This document shows, piece by piece, positions 1 to 17,823 of a DNA stretch of 64,000 nt (position 1 is its first letter; the number at the start of each line of letters is the position of its first letter). Under the pieces are notes generated by a model. The model had not been told where the DNA came from. It was given only the letters and a program-made list of their open reading frames with translations, and made no database searches. The stretch lies in assembly GCA_030646035.1 (NCBI GenBank), contig JAUSMY010000056.1, positions 5,481 through 69,480 on the forward strand. The letters run 5' to 3'. This DNA comes from Thermodesulfovibrionia bacterium (GTDB lineage Bacteria; Nitrospirota; Thermodesulfovibrionia; UBA6902). A program made the position numbers and the translations under genes.

Positions 1-279
1 AAAAGTATTGTTTCAAATTCGTGTATAGAAGCCATTCCAGGCTGTGCTTGGTGCGTCTATCAACCATACTGTGGAAATGACCCTATAAGAAACCATACCC
101 AGCATGGTCATTTTATTGGTAACAGTGCGAGAACTGATTTTTGCCATAAGCACAAAGCAATTTTCAATATTATATTTGAATACCTTCAAAGAAATGATTC
201 AAGCATTATAAATGTATTTTGGTCATGGGTTACTCGGCGAAACACATTTGAAATGAACAATAATATTATTTCTTCTTGA
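1..279 (+). CDS. 3' fragment of a radical SAM enzyme: SPASM/twitch auxiliary Fe-S cluster domain (possible HxsB-like RiPP maturase). The 5' end lies outside the window.
   Basis: Frame 1 is open from the window edge to TGA at 277-279. The translation ...CIEAIPGCAWCVYQPYCGNDP... carries the C-x-x-C-x5-C-x3-C pattern typical of SPASM domains. It sits directly upstream of a second radical SAM gene. Confidence 0.5.
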   Translation, partial: KSIVSNSCIEAIPGCAWCVYQPYCGNDPIRNHTQHGHFIGNSARTDFCHKHKAIFNIIFEYLQRNDSSIINVFWSWVTRRNTFEMNNNIISS

Positions 280-283
280 TAAC

Positions 284-1396: not shown

Positions 1397-1427
1397 ACAA
1401 TTTTATAATTCAAGGAGAGGTGATATT

Positions 1428-2117: not shown

Positions 2118-2138
2118 TTCAGGAGAATTACAAAAACA

Positions 2139-3401
2139 ATGAAGCATATTAATAAAATAATAAGTGTAAATTTATTACTCTTTATTTTATTGTATGGAAC
2201 GCTTCTGTCTTTTGCAGTAACTCCTACTTCATGGTCAGGAAAAGTAATAGAGGTTCTTGACGGAGACATTATCAAAGTGCTCCATGAGAACCATGAAGAA
2301 ACTATTATTTTAGCTGAAGTTGACTGTCCAAAAGTTGACCAGCCATTCGGAAGCATCGCAAAAAACTTTACTTCATATTTGAGTCTTGGAAAAATAATTA
2401 CAGTAAAGCCAGTCGGTACTGATGGCAATAGTCATATTGTTGCTCACATAATTCTTCCTGATAGACATGATCTGAATGAGGACTTAGTAGAGGCAGGCTT
2501 AGCTTGGGTATTACCATCAACTTCAACTAAAAATGCGTTATTAGATAAAGAAGCACAAGCTCGTTCTGATAAACTTGGGATTTGGTCTGAAACAAATCCT
2601 ATTCCACCATGGGAGTGGAATATAAATATCCGCCAGGCTGAAAACGAAAGACTGCTATCTAACATCCAGGAAACGTCACCTTTATCAAAAGATGAAATTA
2701 ATACTTCTATTAGTCAGAACCTAAAATATGAATCTGATGAAAAAGACAGTTTTGTAATCTATCGTGGTTTTGTTGTGAACTTTAATTGTCTTAAAAAAGG
2801 TCCAAATTTTACCATACATAGACTTACGGCAGAACAAATATCTACGGATCATGGCGAAAAAGCTAAAAGAAGAAGCAGTTTTTTTATAGACGACCATCAT
2901 TTAAAATCATGTTCCGCAACAAACAATGATTACAAGAAAAGTGGGTACGATCGTGGGCATATGGTTCCGGCTGGTGATTTTTACTGGAATCAATTACTGA
3001 AAAATGAAACTTTCGTTTTAACGAACATTTCTCCGCAAAGTCCAAACCTTAATAGAGGTATTTGGGTATTCTTGGAGAATACAATTAGAGATAGAGTTAC
3101 CAAAACAAGGCATACATTCTATATAATCACTGGCGTTATATATAGTGAGACTAAAAGCGATGTTATGGGACTTAGTAAGGTCGAGGTGCCCGATTCATTT
3201 TACAAAATTATTTTTGATTCTGATAATAATGAAATGTATGGTTTCTTAATAAATAATGACTTAGACTCCTATGATAGGTCTTTAAAAAGTTATCAGGTTA
3301 GCATCGACTATATTGAAAAATTAGCTAATGAAGATTTCTTTGATAACCTACCTGACATGCTTGAAAACTCCATAGAATCCTCAACAATCTATTTAAATTA
3401 A
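2139..3401 (+). CDS. Secreted two-domain nuclease: N-terminal thermonuclease (SNase)-like domain fused to a C-terminal DNA/RNA non-specific endonuclease (Serratia NucA family)
   Basis: Signal peptide present. The SNase-like block reads VIEVLDGDIIKV...LAEVDCPK...GLAWV...DKLGIW. The Endonuclease_NS active-site motif reads DRGHMVPAGD ... NISPQ ... NRGIW. Confidence 0.7.
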   Translation: MKHINKIISVNLLLFILLYGTLLSFAVTPTSWSGKVIEVLDGDIIKVLHENHEETIILAEVDCPKVDQPFGSIAKNFTSYLSLGKIITVKPVGTDGNSHIVAHIILPDRHDLNEDLVEAGLAWVLPSTSTKNALLDKEAQARSDKLGIWSETNPIPPWEWNINIRQAENERLLSNIQETSPLSKDEINTSISQNLKYESDEKDSFVIYRGFVVNFNCLKKGPNFTIHRLTAEQISTDHGEKAKRRSSFFIDDHHLKSCSATNNDYKKSGYDRGHMVPAGDFYWNQLLKNETFVLTNISPQSPNLNRGIWVFLENTIRDRVTKTRHTFYIITGVIYSETKSDVMGLSKVEVPDSFYKIIFDSDNNEMYGFLINNDLDSYDRSLKSYQVSIDYIEKLANEDFFDNLPDMLENSIESSTIYLN

Positions 3402-3409
3402 TATGAATT

Positions 3410-5434
3410 ATGGCCTTGAATAAATGTTGTACCAGCCTTGCCCTTAGTATGGTCCTTTCTCTTTTTATTGCCAATCCATTTGTAATCTATCTCCTCTTTA
3501 AACAAGTATCTATTTCCATGATCGTTTTTGCAATCGTTTTTATCATGATATATACAACACATTATTTCTATAGCGATGCAAAATGGTTCTTTATATATTT
3601 ATTGAACTTCATAGTCATTCTATCAATTTTCTTATACTTTGAAGTTGTATTTAGGTATGCATTTCAGGAATATATAATCAAAGATTTGTATATAGCGAAA
3701 TCGAAGTATTATTTCAACAAACCCAATTTAAATGAACCTCTAATAGATAGTGAATATAAATCACTATACCGCACTAATAATCAAGGTTATCGTATCGGTA
3801 TATCAACTCCCATGGATAAGGAGTTGAAAGCATGTGACTGGATATTCTTAGGTGATTCTTTTACGCAAGGAGCACAAGTTGAATTTGAACAACTATACAC
3901 TTCGATGTTATATAGGTATTTCCCCAATAAAATAATACTTAACGCTGGCGTTAGTGGCTTTGGAATCGCAGAGGAATATTATTTGCTCAAAGATTTAACC
4001 GCGGAAATAAAACCTAAAAAGGTTTTTTTGCAATTAGGTAGTTTTAATGATTTTGTGAACGTTGAAATTAAATCGCGAAGCATATCAGATTATATAATGC
4101 AATATTCTGATCTGTTTAGATATTTACTGTATGGATTAAAGTATCAACGTTCTGATGACTTGCCATTAGGAAGGTGGACAGAGCCGTTTCATATATCTGA
4201 GAACGACAATATTGACTTTAATATATTTTATAATAAGTCATCTCCGCAGAAAGAAGCAGATATTGAGGCACTAAAAAAGTATTTTGTTCTTTTAAATCAA
4301 GAAGTAGAAAAAGCAGGAGCGGAGTTGATTTTAATTATTCTTCCATCAAAGGAGCAGGTCTATCCAAGATATTTTGATGAAGTCATTAAAACTTTTAAGA
4401 TTAATATTGAATATTTAGACATGAATAAGCCTAATAAAATATTAACTGACTTGGCTAACTCATTGGGAGTTAGAGTTATAGATTTAACCAAAGAGTATAA
4501 AAAACTTCCTAATGAAGTTTTCTTAGTAAAAGATGAACATTTAAATGCATATGGGCATTCAGTGACCGCTGATATCATTGCAAATAAAATGAAAACCGAA
4601 GAAGCTATGAACGTTAAAATATTAGGATCGCATTCAATGACCGAACGGTATCCATCGTATACGAAAAATGGAACAAAATTAATCTATCAAGCATTACGTG
4701 AAGGAAAATTTGAAATAATGGAAGATGATATCATTTATGGTACAGAACAAAGAGTAACCTATGGCGGTGCTGACAAGCTTCACCCAACATTTTCGCCAAA
4801 TAATGAGTTGATAGCATATACAGAAGGAGATCCATCATCACTCAGAAGTAAGATTGCAATTCTCGATGTAACTAATTCACACAAGACATTAATTACAAAT
4901 AAGGAAAACCAATTTGGAGCTATTCCAATGTTCTCAAGTAATGGTAAATTAATCACATATGCCCAATGGCATTATGATCCTCGACTAACATATTATTCAC
5001 TGCCACAAATAGTTTACTCCGAATTAAACGGGGATCATGAGACGGTTATTACAAATAATGATTTTGAAAGCTGGAGACCAGTTTTTTCAAAAGACTCACA
5101 GTCAATATTTTATATATCAAGACGTAATGAGAATTTTGATATTTATAGATATGATCTTATATCTCATATAGAAATGAATCTTACAAATACTCCATATGAT
5201 GAATGGGACCCGAGCATTTCATTTGATGGAAATAAAATTGTTTTTGCTGCTCATAAATATGGGAATTGGGATTTATTTGAAATGAGTATAAAGGGAGAAA
5301 ATATTAGACAGTTAACCTTTACCGTTGGAGATGAATGGGATCCAAGCTATTCGCCAGACGGCAGTAATGTTGTTTTTGCTGGTGATTTTGGTTTTTTGGG
5401 CGGAATATATGAATATTCTCTTAATGAGCATTAA
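3410..5434 (+). CDS. Membrane-anchored SGNH/GDSL hydrolase fused to a TolB-like (PD40/WD40-like) beta-propeller
   Basis: Three N-terminal TM helices. SGNH blocks are present: GDSFTQG (catalytic Ser), NAGVSGFG and DEHLNAYGH (Asp/His). The C-terminal half carries repeated PD40-like units (FSPNNELIAY, FSSNGKLITY, FSKDSQSIFY, SFDGNKIVF, YSPDGSNVVF). Confidence 0.6.
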   Translation: MALNKCCTSLALSMVLSLFIANPFVIYLLFKQVSISMIVFAIVFIMIYTTHYFYSDAKWFFIYLLNFIVILSIFLYFEVVFRYAFQEYIIKDLYIAKSKYYFNKPNLNEPLIDSEYKSLYRTNNQGYRIGISTPMDKELKACDWIFLGDSFTQGAQVEFEQLYTSMLYRYFPNKIILNAGVSGFGIAEEYYLLKDLTAEIKPKKVFLQLGSFNDFVNVEIKSRSISDYIMQYSDLFRYLLYGLKYQRSDDLPLGRWTEPFHISENDNIDFNIFYNKSSPQKEADIEALKKYFVLLNQEVEKAGAELILIILPSKEQVYPRYFDEVIKTFKINIEYLDMNKPNKILTDLANSLGVRVIDLTKEYKKLPNEVFLVKDEHLNAYGHSVTADIIANKMKTEEAMNVKILGSHSMTERYPSYTKNGTKLIYQALREGKFEIMEDDIIYGTEQRVTYGGADKLHPTFSPNNELIAYTEGDPSSLRSKIAILDVTNSHKTLITNKENQFGAIPMFSSNGKLITYAQWHYDPRLTYYSLPQIVYSELNGDHETVITNNDFESWRPVFSKDSQSIFYISRRNENFDIYRYDLISHIEMNLTNTPYDEWDPSISFDGNKIVFAAHKYGNWDLFEMSIKGENIRQLTFTVGDEWDPSYSPDGSNVVFAGDFGFLGGIYEYSLNEH

Positions 5435-5605
5435 TACACTGTATTTTGTAGTTGTATTTTATTATCTACACTAATTTGAAGGCCAGAAAAAAAGGACATG
5501 TCTTATGTTAATTGTTATACTAAAAAGGAGAAGCCATGTACTGCACGAATTTTAGTAATCAAGTCGACGTAAAGGCGGGCGGCAAGTGCCAGGCAGCTAA
5601 ACGCT

Positions 5606-6052
5606 ATGCTTAAAAGGAAAACTTACATGAGATTATTGCAGGTAAATTTCTTTGTTGTGATTCTCGCCTTGTCTATAGTCAGTTGCGAGAAAAGCCCTGT
5701 TGAGGAATTGCAAGAGAAGGCAACCATTTGGATCAATACACTCCATTCCCTCACAGGGGATGAACAGCATGATGTCAAGGCAATAGAGGAATTCATTGAA
5801 CCATCGTCAGTTCGTGGTGAAAGAGCAAAGGAATACTACATTGAATGGACGAAGGATACGTCGTATAAAGTGATAGCGGGCTCTGTAGATGAGGTGTTAG
5901 TTGAAACAGATGGAATTAAAGGAATGGTCCGATATAGTATGGTTTATGAAGACTCGTCAGGACAAAGACAGGTGATTTCGCAACGCACAAAATGGAAGAT
6001 GGTAGACGGAGTATGGTATCGCATTATTGAAATGCCTGACATAAGAAGATAA
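5606..6052 (+). CDS. Hypothetical lipoprotein
   Basis: Signal peptide with a lipobox-like LSIVSC. No recognisable catalytic motif. Confidence 0.4.
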   Translation: MLKRKTYMRLLQVNFFVVILALSIVSCEKSPVEELQEKATIWINTLHSLTGDEQHDVKAIEEFIEPSSVRGERAKEYYIEWTKDTSYKVIAGSVDEVLVETDGIKGMVRYSMVYEDSSGQRQVISQRTKWKMVDGVWYRIIEMPDIRR

Positions 6053-6080
6053 TTTATCTACGAATTCGTTTTAATCTCTT

Positions 6081-7562
6081 TTAAAAAATAAAATAAATAA
6101 AAGATTTTCCTCCGATATCACCCAGAAATAGCAACGAGCATATTATGATATTTAGTAAACATAATTCCTTTATTGTTACATGGTTAATGTCCGCCTTATA
6201 ATAATACCTTTCAATCCAGTCGAACGTTTCATTTAAAAAGAAAAATATAAGTAATAATAAATATGTAATTAATTCAAGTTGAGAAATACCCTGTATTTTA
6301 AATATTGACCATAAGTTATATGTATCATTAGGAATAAGATCAGCAAGTGAGAACATATCAGACATGATAGTTTTGATTATATAGGTTGCACTTGTAAGAT
6401 TATTTGCTCGGAAGAAAATCCAGCCCAAAGAAACCAAATTAAAGGTTACAATTGTTTTAATTAACTTATGTAATTTATCATATTTATTTAAACCAATTTT
6501 CTCAGCAATATATTCTCTAACATTGGCAGTCATGACGCCAGACACATAAAATAGACCATGTATTGCTCCCCATATAACAAAGTTTAAACTTGCACCATGC
6601 CATAATCCACTAACTAAAAAAACAATCATTATATTTCTATACCATCTATAAGTAGATACAGTATTGCCACCTAGAGGAATATATATATAATCCTTAAACC
6701 AAGACATTAGCGTTATGTGCCATCTTTTCCAAAAATCTGCAATTGATGTTGCAAGGTAGGGTTTTTGGAAATTTTCTGATAGCCTGTATCCAAATAGTTG
6801 TGCTGTGCCAATAGCAATGTCACAGTATCCTGAAAAATCACAATATATTTGGAAGGCAAATATATATGTTGTAAGCAGGAAAGTAAATCCGTTATTCCCA
6901 TATGGATTGCCATAAACCAAATCAACTATTAAAGCTAATTTGTCAGCTATAACAATTTTTTTAAAAAGACCCCAAAGAATCCGTTTAACACCATTTAGAA
7001 CTGCATTTAAATTTATTGTCGGCAAGTTATTAAATTGAGGAAGCAAATTGTCTGCTCGTTCTATTGGCCCAGCAAGAAGTTTTGGGAAAAAGGAAATATA
7101 TAAGGCGAATTTACTGAACTGCTTTTCAGGAATATACTTCTTATTATATATATCAAGGCAGTATGAAATAGCTTGAAAAGTATAGAATGAGATACCAATG
7201 GGTAAAGTGATATTATGAATGTTGTAAAAAGATGGGATACCAAAAGAGGGAATTATAATTTTCACAAATCTCAAGAATAAATCTAAGTACTTAAAAATAA
7301 AGAGCAACCCTATATTTGAGAATAAAACAAAAAATAGCCAAAACTTCTTTTTGAGGCCTTCAGACGAAATAATTTTTTGACTACCTAAATAGGTTGTAAC
7401 CGTAGAAAATAGAATTAAAATTATGTATATTGGTTCCGAATAAACATAAAAGAAATAGCTTGCTACCAGAAGAATAATCCAACGACATTTAGAATTAACG
7501 AGAAAATAACATGCTAATACTATTGAAAGAAAGATTAAATATTCTGTAGAGTTAAATGGCAT
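6081..7562 (-). CDS. MBOAT-family membrane-bound O-acyltransferase (AlgI/DltB/PatA-like)
   Basis: Multi-pass membrane protein. It has the MBOAT signature FWKRWHITLMSWFKDYIYIPLGGN and the conserved His region WHGASLNFVIWGAIHG. Confidence 0.8.
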   Translation of the reverse strand: MPFNSTEYLIFLSIVLACYFLVNSKCRWIILLVASYFFYVYSEPIYIILILFSTVTTYLGSQKIISSEGLKKKFWLFFVLFSNIGLLFIFKYLDLFLRFVKIIIPSFGIPSFYNIHNITLPIGISFYTFQAISYCLDIYNKKYIPEKQFSKFALYISFFPKLLAGPIERADNLLPQFNNLPTINLNAVLNGVKRILWGLFKKIVIADKLALIVDLVYGNPYGNNGFTFLLTTYIFAFQIYCDFSGYCDIAIGTAQLFGYRLSENFQKPYLATSIADFWKRWHITLMSWFKDYIYIPLGGNTVSTYRWYRNIMIVFLVSGLWHGASLNFVIWGAIHGLFYVSGVMTANVREYIAEKIGLNKYDKLHKLIKTIVTFNLVSLGWIFFRANNLTSATYIIKTIMSDMFSLADLIPNDTYNLWSIFKIQGISQLELITYLLLLIFFFLNETFDWIERYYYKADINHVTIKELCLLNIIICSLLFLGDIGGKSFIYFIF

Positions 7563-7873
7563 GAATATTTTGGGGGGACTGTCTCAGCCAACTTCGCAAC
7601 CTCATTTATCCCCAGTAATAATTATATACGAATAATTAGTAAGAATTTATTAACGGATTTAGCTTTTATTAAAATTATATAAATCATAACTTTAATAGCT
7701 GAAATCTGTTAATTATATTCTGACGATTATGAAATTTATTGTGTTGCGCTGTTTGCATATTATTTTGATATGAGCTGGGCTTATCGTATAACATAAATAT
7801 TGAATATCCATAACTTGGTCGTTTTTATTGTTATTTGATGTTTTTGAGAAATTGTAACCTATCACTCCCCCCC

Positions 7874-7890
7874 CACGCCACAGCGTGTCA
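7874..7890. promoter_or_regulatory. 17-bp palindromic site CACGCCACAGCGTGTCA. Its inverted partner lies at 14417-14433. Candidate late-activator/operator site.
   Basis: It is an exact inverted repeat of 14417-14433 (TGACACGCTGTGGCGTG). Both copies sit upstream of the duplicated leader elements of two late transcription units. Confidence 0.45.
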
Positions 7891-7969
7891 TTATTTTTAA
7901 ACCATATCTTGAAAAATCCCTGTTATATCTCTATGATTTTATTTAGATAATCAAGTTATATACACTTTT

Positions 7970-8040
7970 GGAGGCACATGATGCCCGGTTCTCCGCTTAA
8001 TAGCGGGGCAGCCGGGCATTTTTTGTTATGGCTGAAAAAG
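7970..8040 (+). promoter_or_regulatory. Copy 1 of a duplicated roughly 70-nt leader element with an RBS, a GC-clamped hairpin and a U-run, running into the start codon of the first structural gene
   Basis: It is about 90% identical to 14641-14711. The hairpin is GCCCGG..(CCGCU UAAU AGCGG)..CCGGGC followed by T6. Two substitutions between copies keep the inner stem paired through G.U wobbles. Confidence 0.55.
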
Positions 8041-8918
8041 ATAACGCATCAACAGACAAAGAGAAAGAGCAGAAGCTGAGAGAGCTTTCCCCTGAAATGC
8101 TTCTTCTTAAGCTGAAGTCTAATGTTGCCAAGAAGCTGGCTGCCGGCGAGACAGGCCTCACCAATGACATCAAACAGATCCGTGACCTTGAAGAGACGTT
8201 AAAAAAGGCCTCAGGCGGAGATGCACCAGAGACGGAAGAATTCGGGATCCCTGAGCGTTTCAAGGTGAAGAGACGTTCTTATACATTGTCTAAGGCTGCT
8301 GTTGAGCAGAGGCGCAAGGCCCAGAAAAAAGCAACTGAGGCGATGCAGAAGCAAGGCGCCTCCACAGGGCCCAAGACTGATGCCGGCAAAAAAGCAAGCC
8401 GTCATAACGCATGGAAGCATGGCTCATATGCCGACAGCCTTTTCAGTCGCCTGACACGCCCCTGTAAAAAGACATGCCCTGATTATCCATGTGTCCTGAT
8501 CGAAGGCGGCAATACCGCCCCTGGACAACCCTGCATGGATGCAGAGTATCTGTACGAGGCATTTATGGCTATTCTCGATGCCGTCAAGAATAACAATTAT
8601 GACGACTTCAACAGTATGGCTGCACTGACTACATCTGCAAATATTCAGATACTCAGAAAGATGCAGGAAGCATTAATAGAGGACGGAGTTGTGGTCATGG
8701 GCGACAAGTTTGATAAAGATGGCACTGTTATCGGGCGTGAGCTCAAGGTCCATCCGGCAATCCCATATCTTGCAAAGCTTACAGAGGCGCTCGGCTTTAC
8801 TCCGAAGGATCTGAATATTACTCCAAGAGAGCTGGCAAAGGAGAAACAGGGCGATAAGTTCCATAAGACCCTTGCTGAGATGATGAGCGGAGTTCCAAGG
8901 AAAGAGGATAAAGAATGA
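8028..8918 (+). CDS. Phage terminase small subunit (P27-family-like)
   Basis: It is the first gene of the structural block and immediately precedes the large terminase, with an ATGA overlap. The C-terminal LTEALGFTPKDLNITPRELAK resembles the P27-family C-terminus. Confidence 0.45.
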   Translation: MAEKDNASTDKEKEQKLRELSPEMLLLKLKSNVAKKLAAGETGLTNDIKQIRDLEETLKKASGGDAPETEEFGIPERFKVKRRSYTLSKAAVEQRRKAQKKATEAMQKQGASTGPKTDAGKKASRHNAWKHGSYADSLFSRLTRPCKKTCPDYPCVLIEGGNTAPGQPCMDAEYLYEAFMAILDAVKNNNYDDFNSMAALTTSANIQILRKMQEALIEDGVVVMGDKFDKDGTVIGRELKVHPAIPYLAKLTEALGFTPKDLNITPRELAKEKQGDKFHKTLAEMMSGVPRKEDKE

Positions 8919-10774
8919 ATCCTCAGGTAATGGAGCCTATTGAGCTTGCTGATCTTAAAAAAGGGATACGTGTTCCTGAAGTTGATTTTGAGAAGTGGCT
9001 GCAAGCTCACGACTGGACATGGCATCAGCTCGCAAGGAACGAATTCCCTATGCCGTTTGAAAGCCTTGATCAATTCCAATTAGCCTGTATATGTGCAGAT
9101 CCTGTCTTATGGGTGCAGGCATTTCTGAGAGAGCCTGAGGATCCTGACCACAAGGAACCTTACAACCTTTTTGATTATCAGATAGAGTCACTGAGATATC
9201 CCGGGCATGCTATTCATGCTGATGCTGCCGAGGTTGGTAAAACAAGAGAGATCGTTGCCCTTGGTCTTCAGAAAGGGTTTACCACGCAAAACGGCTCCGG
9301 TCTGATCGGAGCTCCGATGCAGTCTCACCTTGACGAGATCATCGAGGCGATGGATGACCAGTTTACCTGGAACCCTGATCTTGGAGCCTGTAGGTGGCAC
9401 AGACGCCATAAGGACGGCTGGAAGAAACACCCGCATCATGCTTTTTACTTTACAAATGGTTTCAAGATCGATTTCAAGCCTTCAGGCGACAAAGGAATGG
9501 CATACAGGGGAGTGCATGCAAGGACCTTTGCATTTAAGGATGAAGGAGTGAAGGACAAAAACCCTGCGCAGTGGTCTGAGTTCTGGAGGGCGGTAAAGCC
9601 AAACTGTATCGTCAGGCTTTATTCCGTGCTGGATGGTGACCGCTCCTGTGATTTCTATAAGCTCAAAGAGAGAGCAAAGAGCACGAAGAAGGAAGAGGAG
9701 ATGAAGATCGATTCCTTAAAAGGCGCACAGGGGCATGTGAAGAATATCAAATTCAAGCTCTTTGTATGGCCAAAGACATTAATGCCGGTACCGTACTGGA
9801 CCCCTGAGAGGAAACAGTTCTATGTTGAGCAGTACGGCGGAGAGGACTCTGCCGGTTACAAACACAATGTCATGGCGCAGGACGGCGATCCTGAGAACTC
9901 TGTCTTCCCATGGACACAGTTCGGCCTCACGATCAAGGATGTCCCGGATTATCGATGTCTTAAGGTTCTTGTTGATTCAGGCAACAATGAGGTCATTGTT
10001 AACGGCTATAAGTGCGAGTATGTCCCAGGTGATGACGGTCCGGTGCCGAGGGTGATATCTCTTATTGATGAAACATACAAGGCATCGACCTTCTTTGATT
10101 TTAATGATGATAACGAATCGGAGTTCAGAAAGCTGATCAAGAGCTTTTTTATCTCGATCCCCGGCCTTAAGCGCGGCGGCGGTGACTTTGGTTTCAGCGG
10201 TGATCCTACTGAGTTATTAATAAAGAGCATCATCGGGAAAAAGGAACGGACAGTCGCACGTCTTCAGCTGAAGCATGTTACATATGACCAGCAATGCCAG
10301 GCGATTGATGCCATGGATGATGTTTACGGCCCCATCGAATCGATAATGTGGGGAACTGACTTTGGCAATGCCGGTTCAGCTGTTACTCATATACTTCAGG
10401 GTGAGCCCAGATACAGGCATAAGAATTACAGTCACAGGTTGAAAGGTTTTATGTTTGAATCAACGGCTGACAATATCAATGAGGCCGGCGAGCCGATAAT
10501 CGAGACAAAGACACAGAAGCCGGCAACGATAACGCTCAAGGAACTGGCAACAGATATCCTGGTCCAAAAGATGCAAAGGCAGGAGCTTGAATATCCTCCT
10601 GACCCTGATATGGTTTTGTTTTACCCAAACCATACGGTCAGACAGGGAGGAAAGCACCGCATATACAAAAAAGAAGATGATCATATTATTGACGCTGACA
10701 GGGTGCAGATATTGGCAAAGCTCTTTTCGGCAATGGTGGAAGACTATTTTTCATCCGGGAGTAATGTCCGATGA
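8915..10774 (+). CDS. Phage terminase large subunit
   Basis: 619 aa in the position between TerS and the portal. ADAAEVGKTRE is Walker-A-like. It is translationally coupled on both sides. Confidence 0.55.
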   Translation: MNPQVMEPIELADLKKGIRVPEVDFEKWLQAHDWTWHQLARNEFPMPFESLDQFQLACICADPVLWVQAFLREPEDPDHKEPYNLFDYQIESLRYPGHAIHADAAEVGKTREIVALGLQKGFTTQNGSGLIGAPMQSHLDEIIEAMDDQFTWNPDLGACRWHRRHKDGWKKHPHHAFYFTNGFKIDFKPSGDKGMAYRGVHARTFAFKDEGVKDKNPAQWSEFWRAVKPNCIVRLYSVLDGDRSCDFYKLKERAKSTKKEEEMKIDSLKGAQGHVKNIKFKLFVWPKTLMPVPYWTPERKQFYVEQYGGEDSAGYKHNVMAQDGDPENSVFPWTQFGLTIKDVPDYRCLKVLVDSGNNEVIVNGYKCEYVPGDDGPVPRVISLIDETYKASTFFDFNDDNESEFRKLIKSFFISIPGLKRGGGDFGFSGDPTELLIKSIIGKKERTVARLQLKHVTYDQQCQAIDAMDDVYGPIESIMWGTDFGNAGSAVTHILQGEPRYRHKNYSHRLKGFMFESTADNINEAGEPIIETKTQKPATITLKELATDILVQKMQRQELEYPPDPDMVLFYPNHTVRQGGKHRIYKKEDDHIIDADRVQILAKLFSAMVEDYFSSGSNVR

Positions 10775-12963
10775 TATTAAAAGCAGACGGCACGATCTAT
10801 GAGAGTAAAGCCGCGCCTGATGGAATAATCGCTATCTCACAGTTACGTCATAGCAGCCCTCAGGGTCCCATGACCGACTGGTTTAATAATTATGTCTTCA
10901 GAAAGATAGCAGGCGAGTTTTATGAGGTGCTCAGGGAAGGTATCCCAATAATTGATGCCGCCATTTCGCGGCTCATATCTCTTGAGGGGACGATCAAGAT
11001 AATCGGGGATAATGCGCAGCTTGTCAGAGAGCTTGAGGATTTTCATCGGAACATTCCTGTTGGTGATATGCAGACCGGCATAAATGCATTCCACAGAAAT
11101 ATGTCTAATGAGAAGTTTGAACAGGGCTTTGCTCTTCCTGAGATCGTAGCGACAAAAGACCTTAAAGATGTTCAGGAACTCAGGGTGCCTGACAGCAAGT
11201 ATATTATCTTCAGGAGAAACAAAGACGGCAGATCTGAACCCTGGTACCGTTATCCCGGAGACTCCCCTGCGCGGAGGCCGCAATATTATTCAACGCCTCT
11301 TAATATTATTCAGGAGATACTTACCGCCTCATACGGGCAGGCCGTTAATATTAACGGTGTAAATGAGGTGAAGCTGAATCCTGCCAATAAGATATATTTC
11401 TCCATGAACAATGAGAATACAGACCCGCACGGGGTATCTCTGATGCGCTCAATGGAGTTTTGCGCGAATATCCTTGTGACTCTTGAGAATGCGATGAAGA
11501 ACTCAGGCGACCGCTTTGGAGATCCTTCTTACCATATTCATTTGAAAGGCGCGAAGGCCGGCAACCAGACGGAGGTGGAGAGCAGAAGAAAGAAGCTTGA
11601 AGCAGATTTTACAACGGTCATAGAGACAAAGAGAGCGGGGCAGAGCGCTGATCTTGTTACAGCCGGAAGCGCAGATTCAGACGTCAGTGTATCTGTGATA
11701 GGACATGACGGACAGCTATTTAATTTTATGATACCGATCCGTCATGCAAGCGAGCAGATACTTGCAAAGACAGGCCTTGCCGCGTGGAGCGTCGGGCTTT
11801 ATTGGGGCGGAGCCGGAGGTAAAGCAAACATTGAGGCAGAGATGATGCTTGCCGATGCAAAGGTCAGAGGGGCAGAGATGCTCCCCGGATACATAAAGCT
11901 TTTTTCCACCTTCCTTCAATTAAGAGGCTATACATGGAAGAGCATTACTACTTCAGAGGATAAACCCGGGGACTGGGGTGTGGTCTTTGAAACTCCAAAC
12001 ATCCGCGACCTCGTCACAACAGCACAGGCAAGATTCCTAAATGCACAGGCAGATATGATGCAGAATAATGCCGGCATGATAGAAATCAACAGTCAAGCAA
12101 GCGTTGAAATAGGCGGCAATAAGTATCCGATAATAAAGGGTAAAACATGTGGATGTAAAAGCTATGCCGGCAAGGAATTTAAACGTCCCTTGTTTTGGCC
12201 TGACCTTGATGATCTTGAAACAAAATATGAGACAAAACTAAAAGATAAGTGGCGTGATTTTGAGAACAGGTCATACAGGATATTAAGTATCGACATGGAA
12301 GAGGTCATAAAATCTCCCGACAAATTTATTTTTACTGAGATACAAAAGAAGGATCTTGAGAAGGCGCTCGATAAATACTTAAAAGGTTTAAAGCTTGATG
12401 ACCTTCCTTATTATTATGGGCAGGCTTATTCACTCGGCTTGATAGCAGCTGCTTATGTGGTTCAGAAAGAGGATGAAGGGTTTGACCTGAAAGATATAGA
12501 TTCTATTCCTCCGCAGTCATCAATTGCGGCAGTCCCGATTCTGGACATCATAAAGAATAGAGAGATATTTGAAGATATTGTCAATTCCGGTTTTGATCTT
12601 GTAAAGGACAAAGCCACCAGCCGGATCAAGGATGAGATCATTACAGAGATAGAGAGCGCGGTAGCAGCGGGTAAAAATCCAAAGGAAGTGGCATCAATAC
12701 TTAAGGGTAAATTCAGCGATGCCAATTCAGACTGGGAGCGCCTTGCACGGAGTGAACTCTCCATGGCGGCAGAAAGGGCGAAGCTCGACGAATGGGGTGA
12801 GTGGGAGATTAAAGAGGTGGAGTTCGCTCCTGCACCTGATGCCTGCCCGATATGCAGGGCGCTTGCCGGTGATTATCCGATAGCGGACTGTCCGATACCG
12901 GTCAAAGATACACATCCAAGATGCCGGTGCAGCACAAGGCCTGCGGAGAGCGAAACGAGATAA
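10771..12963 (+). CDS. Portal protein fused to a Mu F-like/SPP1 gp7-like minor head morphogenesis domain
   Basis: 730 aa directly after TerL. The C-terminal CPICRALAGDY...DTHPRCRCSTRP matches the Phage_Mu_F C-terminal Cys/His motif. Confidence 0.6.
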   Translation: MILKADGTIYESKAAPDGIIAISQLRHSSPQGPMTDWFNNYVFRKIAGEFYEVLREGIPIIDAAISRLISLEGTIKIIGDNAQLVRELEDFHRNIPVGDMQTGINAFHRNMSNEKFEQGFALPEIVATKDLKDVQELRVPDSKYIIFRRNKDGRSEPWYRYPGDSPARRPQYYSTPLNIIQEILTASYGQAVNINGVNEVKLNPANKIYFSMNNENTDPHGVSLMRSMEFCANILVTLENAMKNSGDRFGDPSYHIHLKGAKAGNQTEVESRRKKLEADFTTVIETKRAGQSADLVTAGSADSDVSVSVIGHDGQLFNFMIPIRHASEQILAKTGLAAWSVGLYWGGAGGKANIEAEMMLADAKVRGAEMLPGYIKLFSTFLQLRGYTWKSITTSEDKPGDWGVVFETPNIRDLVTTAQARFLNAQADMMQNNAGMIEINSQASVEIGGNKYPIIKGKTCGCKSYAGKEFKRPLFWPDLDDLETKYETKLKDKWRDFENRSYRILSIDMEEVIKSPDKFIFTEIQKKDLEKALDKYLKGLKLDDLPYYYGQAYSLGLIAAAYVVQKEDEGFDLKDIDSIPPQSSIAAVPILDIIKNREIFEDIVNSGFDLVKDKATSRIKDEIITEIESAVAAGKNPKEVASILKGKFSDANSDWERLARSELSMAAERAKLDEWGEWEIKEVEFAPAPDACPICRALAGDYPIADCPIPVKDTHPRCRCSTRPAESETR

Positions 12964-13029
12964 AGGATAAGTGGAGCTATGAGATCAACCTTGAAGACGG
13001 GGAACTATACATAACCACTGGAGGATAAT

Positions 13030-13299
13030 GTGTCTGATACCTATGTAACAGAGGAACGGTTTAAGGATTATAAATTAGCAGTAGAAAAACTTTGTGATAC
13101 AAAACACAGCCCTCTTGGAAAAGATGTTGAATGCTTATTCGATAAACTTCGCGATAAAGCGGAGAAGAGCGATCTTGATAAAAAAGCAGATCAGACGGAG
13201 GTGGAAGGTTTGAAGGATAACGTCAAGAGTATTGATAGAAAATTCTGGGCGGTGATTCTTTTAGTGATCACAACGCTTATAGCTGTAATTCTCAAGTAA
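13030..13299 (+). CDS. XhlA-like lysis-associated protein (coiled coil with a C-terminal TM anchor)
   Basis: 89 aa with a charged coiled-coil N-terminus and a single C-terminal TM helix (FWAVILLVITTLIAVIL). It lies immediately upstream of the holin/endolysin. Confidence 0.4.
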   Translation: MSDTYVTEERFKDYKLAVEKLCDTKHSPLGKDVECLFDKLRDKAEKSDLDKKADQTEVEGLKDNVKSIDRKFWAVILLVITTLIAVILK

Positions 13300-13471
13300 T
13301 GAAGATCGGTAATGGAATAAAAGAAGTTGGGCTCAATGACATCTGTTGCAGATGCCGTGAGGTAAGTACCTGCCCCGATCTTGAAGCGATGAAGGAATTA
13401 CCGATAGTGAAGATATTATTTATGATCATCTGTAATAAAAAGGGGACTGATGAATAAAGGAGGATGCTGAT

Positions 13472-13927
13472 ATGGTATTGAGTGTATTCGGGACAGTGTT
13501 CGGGTTTTTGACTTCATTCGCACCTAATCTGCTGAAGTTCTGGCAGGATAAGCGGGATAAAGACCATGAGCTGAAAGTGATGGAGCTGCAGATGCAGGCT
13601 CAGGCTCAGGGACACATGGAAAGGCTTGAGGAGATTAATGCCGAGGCTGACATCGCAGAGAGCAAGGCGCTCTATCAATCTGCTCAGGTTACATTATCCG
13701 GTGTCAGCTGGGTTGATGCGACACTTACCTTTCTTAATTCCAGCGTACGCCCGATTATTACATATTCATTCTTTGGAGTTTACACATGGGTGAAGGCGGA
13801 ACAGTATGCAGTTGCAAATGATATTTCAAAGGTCTGGACAGCAGAAGACATGGCGATCTTTTGCACGATTATCAGTTTCTGGTTCGGGTCACGGAGCATG
13901 AGGTACTATTTTGGCAAGAAGTCATAG
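13472..13927 (+). CDS. Putative holin
   Basis: Small membrane protein with an N-terminal TM and a second hydrophobic segment. It sits directly upstream of, and overlaps, the endolysin gene. Confidence 0.4.
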   Translation: MVLSVFGTVFGFLTSFAPNLLKFWQDKRDKDHELKVMELQMQAQAQGHMERLEEINAEADIAESKALYQSAQVTLSGVSWVDATLTFLNSSVRPIITYSFFGVYTWVKAEQYAVANDISKVWTAEDMAIFCTIISFWFGSRSMRYYFGKKS

Positions 13928-14387
13928 AAAGACAACGCCAGCGGGGCGAAAGTTGATTAAGGATTTTGAGCAGTTTTCAACAACGCCTTATATCTGCCCG
14001 GCTGGTTATTGGACAATAGCATTCGGGCATTTAATAAGAAAAGGTGAAGTTTTCACATCTGTAACAGAAGAAGAGGGAGAGGCGATACTGGAAAAGGATT
14101 TATATACAGCAGAGAGGGCTGTCCTGAGATTAATAAGCGTGCCATTATCAGACTCACAGTTTGATGCTCTTGTATCATTTGTTTTTAACCTTGGCTCCGG
14201 CGCTTTACAGAGCAGCACGTTAAGAATGAAGATCAATCGCGGCGAATATTCTGCGGAAGTGGCGGTGCAGTTTATGCGATGGGTTTATGCCGGAGGGCGG
14301 AAATTAAATGGTCTTATTCGCAGGCGCCGGGCTGAGGCCGATATGTATTGCATGTCGGCAAATATGGGATTAAAACAGGCGGCATAA
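13911..14387 (+). CDS. Endolysin, GH24 phage lysozyme (T4 E/lambda R-like muramidase)
   Basis: LIKDFEQFSTTPYICPAGYWTIAFGHL matches the GH24 catalytic N-terminus (E...D...T motif). The downstream region LNGLIRRRRAE is typical of these enzymes. Confidence 0.75.
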   Translation: MARSHRKTTPAGRKLIKDFEQFSTTPYICPAGYWTIAFGHLIRKGEVFTSVTEEEGEAILEKDLYTAERAVLRLISVPLSDSQFDALVSFVFNLGSGALQSSTLRMKINRGEYSAEVAVQFMRWVYAGGRKLNGLIRRRRAEADMYCMSANMGLKQAA

Positions 14388-14416
14388 ATGGAGATGTTTC
14401 AAAGTAATTAAAAAAG

Positions 14417-14433
14417 TGACACGCTGTGGCGTG
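14417..14433. promoter_or_regulatory. Inverted copy of the 17-bp palindromic site at 7874-7890
   Basis: Exact reverse complement of 7874-7890. It lies 34 nt upstream of the com-like gene. Confidence 0.45.
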
Positions 14434-14466
14434 AACTTTTCTTTTAAAGCTGTTATAAATTAAGCA

Positions 14467-14625
14467 ATGAAAGAAAAGAAGCCCGCTGAATTACCTAATG
14501 TACGGTGCAAAAAATGCGGGAAGCTATTATTCAAAGGAGAGTTTACAGAGATAGAGGTCAAATGCCCCCGCTGCAATTTCTTACAGACCTTCAGGGGTGC
14601 TCAAGCACTTAAGAAAGCAAGCTAA
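14467..14625 (+). CDS. com: Com-like zinc-ribbon protein (phage Mu Com translational activator family). Small ORF missing from the six-frame track.
   Basis: 52 aa: MKEKKPAELPNVRCKKCGKLLFKGEFTEIEVKCPRCNFLQTF... It has CxxC-x16-CxxC and aligns with Mu Com as I remember it (RCKNCNKLLFKA...IEIRCPRCK). Confidence 0.6.
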   Translation: MKEKKPAELPNVRCKKCGKLLFKGEFTEIEVKCPRCNFLQTFRGAQALKKAS

Positions 14626-14640
14626 TACACCATAACCTAA

Positions 14641-14711
14641 AGAGGCACATGATGCCCGGTTCTCTGCTTAACAGTGGGGAAGCCGGGCATTTTTTATTAT
14701 GGCAGACAAAA
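14641..14711 (+). promoter_or_regulatory. Copy 2 of the duplicated leader hairpin element, immediately downstream of the com-like gene
   Basis: See 7970-8040. The hairpin is GCCCGG..(CUGCU UAAC AGUGG)..CCGGGC followed by T6. Confidence 0.55.
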
Positions 14712-14803
14712 AAGGGAAGACAGACAAGATAACGCAGAAGACTTCAGATGATGCTCTGAAGGATTTTAAAAGATCCGGGATTGAAGGAACAAAGAGCAGA
14801 TGA
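14699..14803 (+). CDS. 34-aa leader ORF translationally coupled (ATGA overlap) to the prohead protease/scaffold gene
   Basis: Its start lies inside the repeated element. Its N-terminus (MADKKGKTDK) parallels the TerS N-terminus (MAEKDNASTDK). The stop TGA overlaps the ATG at 14800. Confidence 0.35.
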   Translation: MADKKGKTDKITQKTSDDALKDFKRSGIEGTKSR

Positions 14804-15933
14804 AGATCACAAAAAATAAGATCCTTAAATCATTCGGCGCCAAAGCGGTTATAACCACTCCTGACGATACTCAGCTTGCGATCATAAACGGATTTACAAA
14901 GAGGGTATTTACGGCTGATGAGCTTTATGTGTCCCAGATACGTCTTGCTAATAATGCCATTGACCGTGACGGGGAGCGTTTCAGTGATGAGACACTACAG
15001 GGGTTTATCGATTCCGCAGTAAAGAAGACCTGGCTGCTTGATCATGATAAGAAGGTCAGGTCAGCGATAGGCAAGATCTTCGCAGTTGAGAAAGAGAGTA
15101 TGACCATAGAGGATGCGAAGAAGATCGACGAGAACATCGAACTTCCAGCAGGCATGAAGGAAGTTATCTTTTTCTCTCCATGGATATACATTCCGAAGAA
15201 AGGCATTAGCGATCAGGACCTCATTAAGATCGAGGCCGGTATCTATGACTTTGCTTCAATAGGATTCAGCGCCGACAAGCTGGCTCCGGTCAGGGATGAT
15301 GAGGAGAATATCCTTTACTGGGAATACAAGGGTGCGGGAAAGACAAATGAGGGCTCTTATGTTTATCTCGGGGCACAATATGGCGCAGCTTCAAAGACAG
15401 CTGATGACGATAAATTCAAGCATGAGAAACAAGGAGGAATTGAAAAGATGAAGGACCTTATCAAGAAGTTTAAGGAGATTTTCCAGAAGACCCTTTCAGA
15501 AGACGGATATATTCAGGAGATCGTTGATTTCGTCAAAGGGTTGAAGGACGAGATAACTGCAAAAGAGACAACGATATCTGATCATGAAAAGAAGATCAAG
15601 GAGCTTGGGCCGATGGCTGAGATCGGGCAGAAGGTGAAGGACAAGCTTGTTGAAGACGCAGTTCATTCCTCTACGCTTTTAGGCGAGATTGATAACACGG
15701 ACGATGCCAAGAAGAAAGAGACAGATTACCTCAAAGGTTGTTCCTTTGACCGCCTTCAAAAGACGCATGACAGCCTTTTGTTTAGGGCAAAAGAGAAGTT
15801 TCCAACAGACCCGGCATTTCAGTCAAAGGACAATGAAGACAGGGATAAAACCAAATCCCCTGCCGGCAGCAGCGGAGGGGAGAGCCCTCTAATAAAGAAC
15901 GCAAAAGAAAGAGCAGGAATAACTGACAAATAA
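14800..15933 (+). CDS. Prohead protease fused to a coiled-coil scaffold-like C-terminus
   Basis: It sits upstream of the decoration and capsid genes. The N-terminal half is globular with a LLDHD motif. The C-terminal half is low-complexity and charged (KMKDLIKKFKEIFQ..., ...KIKELG) like scaffolding domains. Confidence 0.45.
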   Translation: MKITKNKILKSFGAKAVITTPDDTQLAIINGFTKRVFTADELYVSQIRLANNAIDRDGERFSDETLQGFIDSAVKKTWLLDHDKKVRSAIGKIFAVEKESMTIEDAKKIDENIELPAGMKEVIFFSPWIYIPKKGISDQDLIKIEAGIYDFASIGFSADKLAPVRDDEENILYWEYKGAGKTNEGSYVYLGAQYGAASKTADDDKFKHEKQGGIEKMKDLIKKFKEIFQKTLSEDGYIQEIVDFVKGLKDEITAKETTISDHEKKIKELGPMAEIGQKVKDKLVEDAVHSSTLLGEIDNTDDAKKKETDYLKGCSFDRLQKTHDSLLFRAKEKFPTDPAFQSKDNEDRDKTKSPAGSSGGESPLIKNAKERAGITDK

Positions 15934-15951: not shown

Positions 15952-16749
15952 ATGAAGCTGACAAAAAGAGAGAAGAGGAAGTTTTCACTTATGGGGTTGA
16001 TCGTGATTACCCTCATCATGGTTATGGGGATCGGGATTGTCGGAGTGGTTGCGCCTAAAGCGCTTGCCGTTTTGCCGCTTATAGGTATCGCACTTGGGAT
16101 TGCCTATGCAGAGGGCAATTATCTGAGCGATGTTTTACTGAAGGAGGCTGATGATAGGGTCTCCCGGGAGAAAGTGACGGTCATATCAGGACAGAATCTT
16201 TTAATCGGCGCAATAGTCGGGAAGATCACAAAAGCGCTTGGGGCGATCACAGCTGATGCAGACAACACCGGTAATGGAACATGTACAGGCGTTACGATGG
16301 GGGCTGACGCATTGCTCGGCACTTATACGATTGAATGCATTACTGCTGTTGAAAATGGCGGGAAATTCAAGGTTATAAACCCACTCGGCAATGCCTTGCC
16401 GGATGCAACTGTTGCAGTTGCTTATGTGAACGATCAGATTAATTTTACAGTCAATGACGGAGCCACGGACTTTATCGTTGGTGATAAGTTCACTATCGTT
16501 GTTGGTGCCGGCAGCGGGAAGGTCACACAGCTTGCTCCTGCCGCGATTAACGGCTCACAGAATGCTTACGGCATGCTGACATCTGCGATTGATGCAAGTT
16601 CCGCAGATGTGGAAGGAGTAGCTATCGTCAGAGATGCCGTGCTAAAGAGTTTGGGTATCGTATGGCCGGCGGGCATAACGGAACCACAAAAGGCTGCTGC
16701 ATTGGCAGAGCTTGAAGCAAAACTTGTTACCACAAGGGAGGGGGTATAA
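15952..16749 (+). CDS. Head decoration protein (lambda gpD-like) with an unusual N-terminal double-TM extension
   Basis: It lies immediately upstream of the lambda E-like capsid gene. The C-terminal 120 aa are Gly/Ala/Val-rich and resemble decoration proteins. Two N-terminal hydrophobic helices are atypical. Confidence 0.4.
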   Translation: MKLTKREKRKFSLMGLIVITLIMVMGIGIVGVVAPKALAVLPLIGIALGIAYAEGNYLSDVLLKEADDRVSREKVTVISGQNLLIGAIVGKITKALGAITADADNTGNGTCTGVTMGADALLGTYTIECITAVENGGKFKVINPLGNALPDATVAVAYVNDQINFTVNDGATDFIVGDKFTIVVGAGSGKVTQLAPAAINGSQNAYGMLTSAIDASSADVEGVAIVRDAVLKSLGIVWPAGITEPQKAAALAELEAKLVTTREGV

Positions 16750-16752
16750 ACC

Positions 16753-17766
16753 ATGTTTGTCAACTTAGCGAAAGATCCTGCATTTAATGTCGCCTCACTT
16801 TCACAGGCGATAAACATCCTGCCGAATAACTACGGCAAAGTGAGAGAGATGAACCTCTTCCCGTTCAAGGGAGTGAGGACGAGAGTTATATATGTTGAAG
16901 AACAGAATGGCGTTCTCAACTTATTGCAGACACAGCCGATCGGGGCGCCGGGAGATGCCGGAATAAGCGGCAAGCGTAAAGTGAGGTCATTTGTAATACC
17001 TCATATCCCGCATGACGATGTTGTGCTTCCTGAAGAAGTTGAAGGCGTCAGGGCATTCGGCGCTGAACAGGATGTGCTCAAGACCATAGCAGATGCAGTC
17101 AATGAGAAACTTCAGAGCATGAAGAATAAGCATTCCATAACGCTTGAGCATCTGCGCATGGGTGCTCTCAAGGGGATAATCCTTGATGCCGACGGTTCAA
17201 CCCTCTACAACCTCTATACCGAGTTTGAGATAGAGGCCAAGGAGATAGATTTTGTTCTCGGCACTGCAACCACAAAGGTCATCAACAAGTGCAATGAGCT
17301 TGCGAGACATCTTGAAAAGAATCTTAAGGGTGAGGTCATGAACGGAATACATGCCTTCGTGTCTCCTGAGTTCTTTGACAAGCTGACGAATCATGCGACA
17401 GTCAAAGAAGCATATGCCAGATGGCAGAACGGCGAGGCGCTCCGGTCTGACATGAGAAAGGGTTTCAGGTTCGGCCCGATCATGTTTGAGGAGTATATCG
17501 GTGAAGCGACCGACAAGGCCGGTAACGTAAGGAAGTTCATCACGGCTGAAGAAGGGCATGCGTTCCCGACAGGGACGAATGACACATTCAAGACCTTCTG
17601 TGCTCCTGCTGACTTTAATGAGACCGTCAATACCATTGGCCAGCCGATCTACGCCAAGATCTCAGAGCGTAAGCATGGGAGAGGCTATGATCTCCATACA
17701 CAGAGCAACCCGCTGCCGCTCTGTGCAAGGCCGGGAGTCCTTGTGAAGGTCAAGTCAAGCAATTAA
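16753..17766 (+). CDS. Major capsid protein (lambda gpE-like family)
   Basis: 337 aa. The N-terminus MFVNLAKDPAFNVASLSQAINILPNNYGKVREMNLFPFKGVRTRVIYVEEQ resembles the phage major capsid protein E family. A strong intrinsic terminator follows the gene. Confidence 0.65.
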   Translation: MFVNLAKDPAFNVASLSQAINILPNNYGKVREMNLFPFKGVRTRVIYVEEQNGVLNLLQTQPIGAPGDAGISGKRKVRSFVIPHIPHDDVVLPEEVEGVRAFGAEQDVLKTIADAVNEKLQSMKNKHSITLEHLRMGALKGIILDADGSTLYNLYTEFEIEAKEIDFVLGTATTKVINKCNELARHLEKNLKGEVMNGIHAFVSPEFFDKLTNHATVKEAYARWQNGEALRSDMRKGFRFGPIMFEEYIGEATDKAGNVRKFITAEEGHAFPTGTNDTFKTFCAPADFNETVNTIGQPIYAKISERKHGRGYDLHTQSNPLPLCARPGVLVKVKSSN

Positions 17767-17789: not shown

Positions 17790-17823
17790 AGGGGCGGGCG
17801 GTTTACCGCCTGCCCTTTTTTAT
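17790..17823 (+). terminator. Rho-independent terminator after the capsid gene
   Basis: GGGGCGGGCGG-tttac-CCGCCTGCCC stem followed by TTTTTTT. Confidence 0.7.

Follow-up and report, generated by a model that had tools for sequence, protein, structure and literature searches.

The com-like gene described here is located in a prophage within a 64,000-nucleotide (nt) stretch of Thermodesulfovibrionia bacterium DNA (contig JAUSMY010000056.1; the whole stretch is referred to as the window). By its sequence, the 52-residue product clearly belongs to the Com family and is predicted to be an RNA-binding zinc ribbon. The prophage features two copies of an element in which a 17-nt hairpin, the Com box, overlaps a predicted intrinsic terminator. 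Copy B is located between com and the head genes and copy A precedes the packaging genes. This arrangement suggests that Com is very probably wired to the adjoining hairpin and to the late structural genes. On balance, the probable mechanism is antitermination, in which Com would bind the nascent box and block the terminator, so that the late genes are transcribed.

The translation of the com-like open reading frame (ORF) is MKEKKPAELPNVRCKKCGKLLFKGEFTEIEVKCPRCNFLQTFRGAQALKKAS. The protein matches Pfam PF10122 (Zn_ribbon_Com) with 38.2 bits and an E-value of 1e-9 (cut-off 22.9), as well as PHROG families 6417 ("translational regulator", 5.5e-11) and 13819 ("gpCom", 1.2e-10). BLASTP aligns the zinc ribbon to that of Mu Com with 16/29 identities (55%, E 1e-11), and tblastn with the 52-residue protein retrieves Mu, D108, SfMu, and their relatives. 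An exhaustive HMMER search of 1.84 billion representatives returned 183 representative clusters at E ≤ 1e-3, of which the closest Com is 59% identical. In profile searches the protein matches zinc-ribbon families only, and no CAT or ANTAR domain was found. The cysteine ligands are arranged as C14-x2-C17-x15-C33-x2-C36, while the central spacing in Mu Com is x16, and the BLASTP alignment therefore requires a one-residue gap. All four cysteines are invariant in an alignment of 62 family sequences (A1), and Arg13, Leu20, Leu21, Gly24, Glu30, Lys32, and Pro34 are each conserved in at least 90% of them. The protein has the CxxC...CxxC arrangement, the length (~40–70 residues), and the R-C, LL.K.G, and E.KCP positions that are conserved in the family. 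No relative was found in the PDB and no Com model match in NCBIfam. The window contains no second Com homologue. The original prediction, made from the letters of the DNA alone, had placed the ORF in the Com family and had proposed a close alignment of its core with Mu Com; the PF10122 score and the BLASTP identities bear out both. It had given the motif as CxxC-x16-CxxC, of which the two CxxC pairs stand and the spacing does not. It had also called the ORF unannotated, although NCBI already names the same protein in a Thermodesulfovibrionia metagenome-assembled genome "Com family DNA-binding transcriptional regulator".

The two copies of the box and terminator form a direct repeat, D1 (Table 1), for which the chance expectation is 0 matches. 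Hairpin B has a folding free energy (ΔG) of −24.6 to −25.9 kcal/mol, and its 71-nt context has a z-score of −4.5, with 0/200 shuffles equally stable. A scan of the whole window found hairpin A, which has a ΔG of −30 to −31.5 kcal/mol and a z-score of −6.0. Both copies feature a GC-rich 17-bp stem (ΔG −24.6 and −30.2 kcal/mol) followed by UUUUUU, and from these features they are textbook intrinsic terminators of predicted activity. Four differences between the copies fall within the hairpin, two G-C pairs that become G-U, one loop base, and one bulge base, and the fold is kept. The start codons of the following genes, ATG 8028 in copy A and ATG 14699 in copy B, are located 8 nt 3' of the hairpins and outside the stems. 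Copy A is found ahead of the first packaging gene, 6.5 kb from com. The 5' arm of terminator B (14652–14659) shares the 3' half of Com box B.

Com homologues and their flanks were gathered from viral contigs, metagenomes, and genomes, which gave 147 loci with distinct Com cores. Alignment A1 was too degenerate for large collections and a narrower alignment, A2, was used there. The Com box consists of AGAG, a 4-nt stem, a 3-nt loop that is mostly NCG, the 4-nt complement, and CC. It is often found in tandem and is located immediately 3' of com in 63/147 unique loci. In a pairing-independent test, every AGAG-N11-CC match was counted, near or far from com. Between −60 and +300 nt of com stop codons there are 112 matches, 70% of which have 4/4 stem pairs, while the remainder of these loci, both strands counted, yields 377 matches, of which 3.4% are fully paired. 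Among 108 distinct sequences, 89.4% of the box stem cells are paired vs 51.2% in shuffles (0/500 as high) and the covariation score is 0.90 vs 0.19. Compensatory changes affect all four box pairs, with 173 double-change cells in total; pairing in slid controls does not exceed 52%.

Many loci carry a variable hairpin and a U-tract after the last box. When 16 independent loci were folded together with RNAalifold, the consensus built the 5' arm of the terminator from the G of the box loop, the 3' strand of the box stem, its CC, and the next bases, so that terminator columns 17–27 overlap the box; the same overlap is found in the window. Since one stretch of RNA serves both as the 3' half of the box and in the 5' arm of the terminator, the two hairpins are mutually exclusive. 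The box alone has a stability of ~−4 kcal/mol in the window and −4.8 kcal/mol in the consensus, which is typical for protein-dependent antiterminator hairpins.

A covariance model of the box and terminator, R1, was built from 16 other loci with the window excluded. It scores 42.2 bits (E 1.2e-9) at 14635–14701 and 37.9 bits (E 1.7e-8) at 7964–8030, and the third-best score in the window is 10.8 bits. A partial match at 59444 (E 0.34) falls within a host ORF and was rejected as due to chance. R1 matches 46 com loci, always 3' of com and on the com strand, and this number is a lower bound for terminators among com loci. No R1 match was found in Mu, in Chuche, or in L087–L090, which are head-module relatives without com. 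The proposal that the element is a conserved leader of the head operon was rejected, since these relatives lack both com and the element. Across the unrelated loci compared, the element is conserved with com genes and not with the head operon. With a single-box covariance model, R2, the highest score anywhere in the window (21.2 bits, E 6.5e-4) falls at 14635–14663. No family in Rfam 15 covers the box-terminator element.

Mu Com binds a short hairpin beside a translation-inhibition structure (TIS), and a GA dinucleotide is protected on binding (PMC6483171). The Mu site can be written in the same 17-nt frame, GAAU GCCU GCG AGCA UC, with the same U-NCG-A core and with GA at the same positions. 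The literal motif from systematic evolution of ligands by exponential enrichment (SELEX) with Mu Com, CC(N)2-3GAG, is not present in the window box, which shares the frame and the GA only. The com-methyltransferase/Mom loci L012, L022, L038, L047, and L078 feature an AGAG-NNNC-AUG-ANNN-CC variant, and box B of the window is the same AUG-loop variant. Since this variant is common to the com-methyltransferase/Mom loci, the apparent Shine–Dalgarno (SD) sequence plus AUG at 14641–14651 is a Com box and not a ribosome-binding site. A 26-residue leader peptide starting at AUG 14652 behind AGAGG was rejected on the same grounds, and the two copies of this ORF also differ by two nonsynonymous and three synonymous changes and have different end points. 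In the classical com-methyltransferase loci the box abuts a stem with the SD or the start codon, whereas in the short-Com loci, including the window, it abuts a terminator.

In the proposed mechanism the terminator (−25 to −30 kcal/mol vs ~−4 kcal/mol for the box) would form when Com is absent and transcription would stop. When Com is present, the nascent box would be bound and its 3' half held, so that the terminator would be unable to nucleate. RNA polymerase would then read through into the packaging/lysis block from site A and into the head block from site B. This would be the logic of Mu Com, in which a protein-stabilized hairpin displaces an adjoining inhibitory hairpin, transferred to a terminator. 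Both the binding of Com to the box and the resulting read-through are steps that we infer.

Several observations weigh against antitermination. The gene for Com is located downstream of terminator A, so that the first Com would have to come from a promoter of its own or from leaky read-through. A TATAAA located 7 nt before the com ATG, which has no SD, is a weak promoter-like sequence only; it hints at a leaderless com mRNA. Upstream of site A, a TTGAAA-17-TATGAT match does not exceed the background. The Com box stem in the window consists of three pairs and a C·A mismatch, and each site has a single box whereas many loci carry two. The flank of copy A is GGAG rather than AGAG, and this copy is not significant under R2 (12.2 bits, E 0.41). 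Genes 8028 and 14699 lack an SD after the U-tract, which leaves room for a translational component. In the TonB-receptor loci the box is often found without an R1-type terminator, and the box therefore may not always act via termination.

Translational activation as in Mu, in which the hairpin would block the ribosome at the head and packaging starts and Com binding would open it, has a small but real chance of being correct. It is the only mechanism that has been demonstrated experimentally for a Com protein (PMC6483171). The two AUGs are only 8 nt from the base of the hairpin and have no SD of their own, the 69-nt repeat takes in the first four codons, and the classical com-methyltransferase boxes abut a stem in which the SD or start codon is buried. 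However, the real start codons in the window are outside the hairpin, and a perfect U6 tail is superfluous for masking. In sister loci that carry this element (L171, L013, L021, and L142), the U-tract is followed by a free SD, which points to an action of the hairpin on transcription rather than on access of the ribosome. A zinc ribbon is also unlikely to melt a formed hairpin of −25 to −30 kcal/mol, and co-transcriptional competition would be easier.

The original prediction concerned this mechanism and its setting. Its placement of com between lysis and head genes agrees with the lysozyme gene on one side and the scaffold, HDPD, and capsid E genes on the other. Its statement that no mom follows is likewise supported, since no mom or DNA methyltransferase gene was recognized among the 27 of the prophage ORFs that were scanned, and none is located directly after com. 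A conserved RNA hairpin does precede the head genes directly downstream of com (14651–14691, z = −4.5), and it carries an apparent Com binding site, the predicted box 14641–14657. The claim that this hairpin is conserved with the head operon has to be abandoned, given that L087–L090 lack the element and that it occurs twice in the prophage. The hairpin was also said to occupy the translation start, but the genuine ATG is located beyond it. The proposal that Com-type translational control has been repurposed for late structural genes can be kept in part: the link between Com, hairpin, and genes is supported, while translation is less probable than antitermination in view of the U6 terminator and the free SDs of the sister loci. 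Com homologues have already been reported with genes other than mom, namely DNA methyltransferases, bacteriocins, and tailocin lysis enzymes (PMC3299994, PMC6240691).

It is improbable that the hairpins are plain terminators duplicated in the prophage, with com as a moron-like, self-contained unit whose target is elsewhere, for example in host Com-box receptor mRNAs, or that has no target nearby. The gene is flanked by terminator-like hairpins (14420–14433 and 14651–14691), it has no SD and has TATAAA 7 nt ahead of its ATG, and the lysis-com block is inserted relative to L087. Com boxes are also found beside com homologues ahead of TonB-dependent receptor and porin genes in the same phylum, Nitrospirota. 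Against a plain terminator, the box itself is conserved and scores independently under R2, so that more than a stem and U-tract is retained, and R1 does not match the unrelated terminator at 17790 (6 bits). Additionally, copy A has no adjoining com gene to terminate, and in each of the 46 com loci with an R1 match the element lies 3' of com in the com orientation.

The hairpin could in principle form a split ribosome-binding site without any role for Com, for which T4 gene 38 is a precedent. In both copies AGAGG or GGAGG is located directly 5' of the hairpin and AUG is located 8 nt 3' of it, no other SD is found at either site, and folding would bring AGAGG within ~13 nt of the AUG. This explanation is very unlikely, because AGAG invariably flanks the Com box on its 5' side, also at loci with a separate SD, the geometry is not kept in sister loci, and the U-tract and the association with com are left unexplained. 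A role of the repeat as DNA, as a packaging (pac) or recombination site, can be given almost no credence: pac sites are often found near the small terminase gene and copy A is just upstream of the presumed one, but the association with com depends on the strand, only one strand has the U-tract, pairing in RNA but not in DNA survives the G-U-compatible changes, and RNA covariation is found across the family.

Table 1. Coordinates of the com-like gene, the box-terminator copies, and the surrounding prophage features in the window.
Feature	Position	Strand	Description
com-like gene	14467–14625	+	ATG to TAA, 52 aa, Com-family zinc ribbon CxxC-x15-CxxC, no SD
Com box B	14641–14657	+	Predicted Com binding site, AGAG GCAC AUG AUGC CC; 17 nt; 15 nt past com stop
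Terminator hairpin B	14651–14691	+	17–18 bp, one bulge, UAAC loop; U-tract 14690–14695
Com box A	7970–7986	+	GGAG GCAC AUG AUGC CC
Terminator hairpin A	7980–8020	+	U-tract 8019–8024; 8 nt before ATG 8028
Direct repeat D1, copy A	7971–8039	+	69 nt: box, terminator, U-tract, first four codons
Direct repeat D1, copy B	14642–14710	+	90% identical to copy A
Terminator-like hairpin after capsid gene	17790–17817	+	Unrelated, strong, with U6; specificity control; ΔG −23.6 kcal/mol; R1 6 bits
Small hairpin/inverted repeat	14410–14433		Between lysozyme gene and com; reverse complement of 7874–7897 (24 nt, 92%)
First late gene	8028–8918	+	296 aa; presumed small terminase subunit, from position alone
619-aa ORF	8915–10774	+	Presumed large terminase, from gene order alone
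Portal + MuF gene	10771–12963	+	Portal from PHROGs
Small membrane ORFs and holin-like ORF			Between portal and lysozyme genes
Phage lysozyme	13911–14387	+	PF00959, E 6.7e-41; final gene of lysis cassette preceding com
34-aa ORF	14699–14803	+	Lysine-rich, conserved; first of head-gene block; stop overlaps next start (ATGA)
Scaffold/protease-like head protein	14800–15933	+	phrog_16951
HDPD decoration gene	15952–16749		After scaffold gene
Major capsid E gene	16753–17766		After HDPD decoration gene
Connector and tail genes			Downstream of major capsid E gene

The prophage spans from ~8.0 kb to a tRNA at 39206–39276, and the integrase gene adjoins the tRNA. The left end and the tRNA/integrase end share no att-site repeat of at least 11 nt, and the left border of the prophage is not fixed. 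Profile scans gave no terminase match for the ORFs at 8028 and 8915; the first ORF of L087, which matches in gene order, has a weak Terminase_4 match. The N-terminus MA.K..K.T.K....K[DE]F....IEGTK of the 34-residue ORF recurs in the ORFs upstream of the scaffold homologues of L087, L088, and L089, and this conservation indicates that the ORF and its start at ATG 14699 are genuine. In L087, which is the closest head-module relative, the portal is directly followed by the small 34-residue-type ORF, and the lysis-com block (~12964–14698) is therefore an insertion relative to L087. The block at 12964–14698 includes an XhlA-like small ORF, a holin-like ORF (phrog_6637), the lysozyme gene, and com. 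The lysin of L087 is instead a Glyco_hydro_108 protein encoded after the connector genes. A search of phage records found no DNA match to the prophage, and a search of viral contigs found no relative of the scaffold gene.

Upstream of box and terminator A, positions 7874–7897 contain a small hairpin, CACGC-N4-GCGTG; this element and its counterpart at 14410–14433 may serve as a weak terminator in both directions or as a binding site for a protein. An accessory region (31500–32777 and 34055–34486 on the minus strand) encodes an HDOD plus HD-domain (HD_5) protein and a SocA/Panacea-domain antitoxin-like protein, and a helix-turn-helix repressor gene (34971–35360, minus strand) adjoins it. To the left of the prophage, positions 1–8000 have a G+C content of 0.30–0.34 vs 0.40–0.49 elsewhere and include an MBOAT acyltransferase gene (6081–7562, minus strand). 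This low-G+C DNA may be another island.

Similar gene orders are found in other com loci. L021 has portal, com, box/terminator, prohead protease (S78), and capsid, which is an independent parallel to the window. Com is located between scaffold and capsid in L001 and L003/L004, between neck and tail terminator in L019, and between terminase and portal in L002, where a hairpin follows it. R1-type elements are also found ahead of endolysins, amidases, and cell-wall hydrolases (L007, L091, L175, and L096). Several of the Com proteins nearest to that of the window by pairwise alignment score are encoded beside lysis genes (L007, L091, and L175; weakly L171), and other top-scoring Coms precede a GroES-like gene (L146), a porin gene (L113), and a SIR2-like gene (L172). 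In L172 (3009–4856), com is followed by the SIR2-like (PF13289) gene and then by the box/terminator element, and the SIR2-like gene may be a defense gene within a Com-controlled unit. A ~180-residue protein, phrog_2161, to which no function is assigned here, recurs upstream of window-like Coms (L007 1101–1622, L171 3439–3999, and L172 2457–3008).

The genes downstream of com comprise 98 distinct genes, of which 20 are DNA methyltransferases or Mom, the classical partners, and 18 are TonB-dependent receptors; others encode periplasmic binding proteins (Peripla_BP_2), FeoA, and ExbB. A Com box is located in the spacer of 12/18 receptor loci. Chromosomal com genes directly upstream of TonB-dependent receptor genes occur in Nitrospirota, Deltaproteobacteria/Desulfobacterota, and Deferribacteraceae, and the receptor loci include L108, L123, L126, L131, L173, L181, L191, L194, L196, L199, L203, and L206. 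The receptor operon of L191 begins with a cobalamin riboswitch (2130–2318). Com and R1-type elements also precede outer-membrane porin genes of the OprB family and Porin_4/Porin_O_P (L113 954–2372, L120 2531–3709, and L211 877–2145), and the switch is therefore not confined to phages. Four to six tandem Com-type zinc ribbons are found in proteins P0013 (447 aa), P0022 (318 aa), P0069 (643 aa), P0070 (482 aa), and P0008 (1065 aa), whose sequences suggest multivalent RNA binders built from the Com module. In Sporomusaceae and other Negativicutes (L174, L177, L178, L180, L183, L205, L210, and L213), tblastn found Com-like stretches but no small ORF that passes the hidden Markov model screen; these stretches may be fused to larger ORFs or may have different starts.

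To our knowledge, Com has been known for 35 years only from the translation of Mu mom. The Com-box motif, as a family-wide element that includes cellular loci, is new relative to Rfam and to the searchable papers. In the searchable literature, outside of which subscription-only papers fall, nothing was found that links Com with antitermination. The motif provides a testable cis element, since the 17-nt covarying hairpin connects the site mapped in Mu with dozens of uncultivated phages and with cellular operons, and the window suggests that the same protein-RNA pair is wired to intrinsic terminators. If antitermination is correct, a new protein family would be added to the short list of RNA-binding antiterminators, late-gene activation would be accounted for in some phages without a recognizable Q-, N-, or Mor/C-type regulator, and a very small orthogonal transcription switch of ~50 residues and ~60 nt would be available. 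The cellular Com-box loci before TonB-dependent receptor and porin genes raise the possibility of post-initiation control of outer-membrane transporters. A broader proposal, which may well hold but is made tentatively, is that Com zinc ribbons are a widespread, hitherto unrecognized class of RNA-binding riboregulators in which the Com box competes with an adjoining terminator or translation-inhibition stem. Phages would use it to gate late transcription (lysis, packaging, and head genes), and bacteria (Nitrospirota, Desulfobacterota, Deferribacterota, and others) would use it before TonB-dependent receptors and porins. The two switches and one com gene of the window would then form a positive-feedback late switch.

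The system of the window resembles the Mu com-mom system in several respects: the regulator belongs to PF10122, with 55% identity in the zinc ribbon; its small gene is located immediately 5' of the RNA target; and a short hairpin with a conserved GA, in the same 17-nt frame, is found beside a stronger inhibitory stem-loop. A predicted Com-binding hairpin is located beside an inhibitory stem-loop at both sites of the window, where 14641–14657 overlaps 14651–14691 and the same arrangement is found in 7970–8020. The differences are that Mu com overlaps the gene it regulates, a DNA-modification enzyme, whereas in the window com does not overlap its presumed targets, which are packaging and head genes, and is followed by the 34-residue ORF and the scaffold-like, decoration, and capsid genes. 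The stem in Mu holds the start codon, whereas in the window the stem-loop is an intrinsic terminator with U6 and starts 14699 and 8028 are 8 nt 3' of it. The window has two target sites, one of which is 6.5 kb away from com, and its protein lacks the long C-terminal tail of Mu Com.

Com-like genes before genes other than mom provide a second comparison. PMC3299994 and PMC6240691 report com-like genes ahead of FluMu/Pnm1/B3 DNA methyltransferases, Pseudomonas llpA bacteriocins, tailocin lysis enzymes, and levansucrases, and PMC6240691 describes their regulatory role as still to be explored. The likeness to the window is a PF10122 gene directly 5' of a harmful or timing-sensitive gene. The two papers describe gene neighborhoods only, and their accessible text mentions no conserved RNA box-terminator and no link to head or packaging genes.

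Among antitermination systems, the closest parallels are the ribonucleic antiterminator (RAT) of BglG/SacY/LicT and ANTAR antitermination, in which a weak hairpin, stabilized by a protein, shares sequence with the 5' arm of a strong terminator in the leader, as in the 16-locus consensus and the window. These systems use a CAT or ANTAR domain, whereas the window uses a Cys4 zinc ribbon, has no evident sensory domain, and is set in a phage late operon. From this comparison, the system of the window is not a member of the RAT/ANTAR class and may work like it. Lambda Q and tR' share with the window a strong terminator directly before the late genes (lysis, packaging, and head) that is to be overridden by the phage. 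Lambda Q targets RNA polymerase at a promoter-proximal DNA site and confers general terminator resistance, whereas in the window each terminator carries its own RNA box, which argues for site-specific action at the level of RNA.

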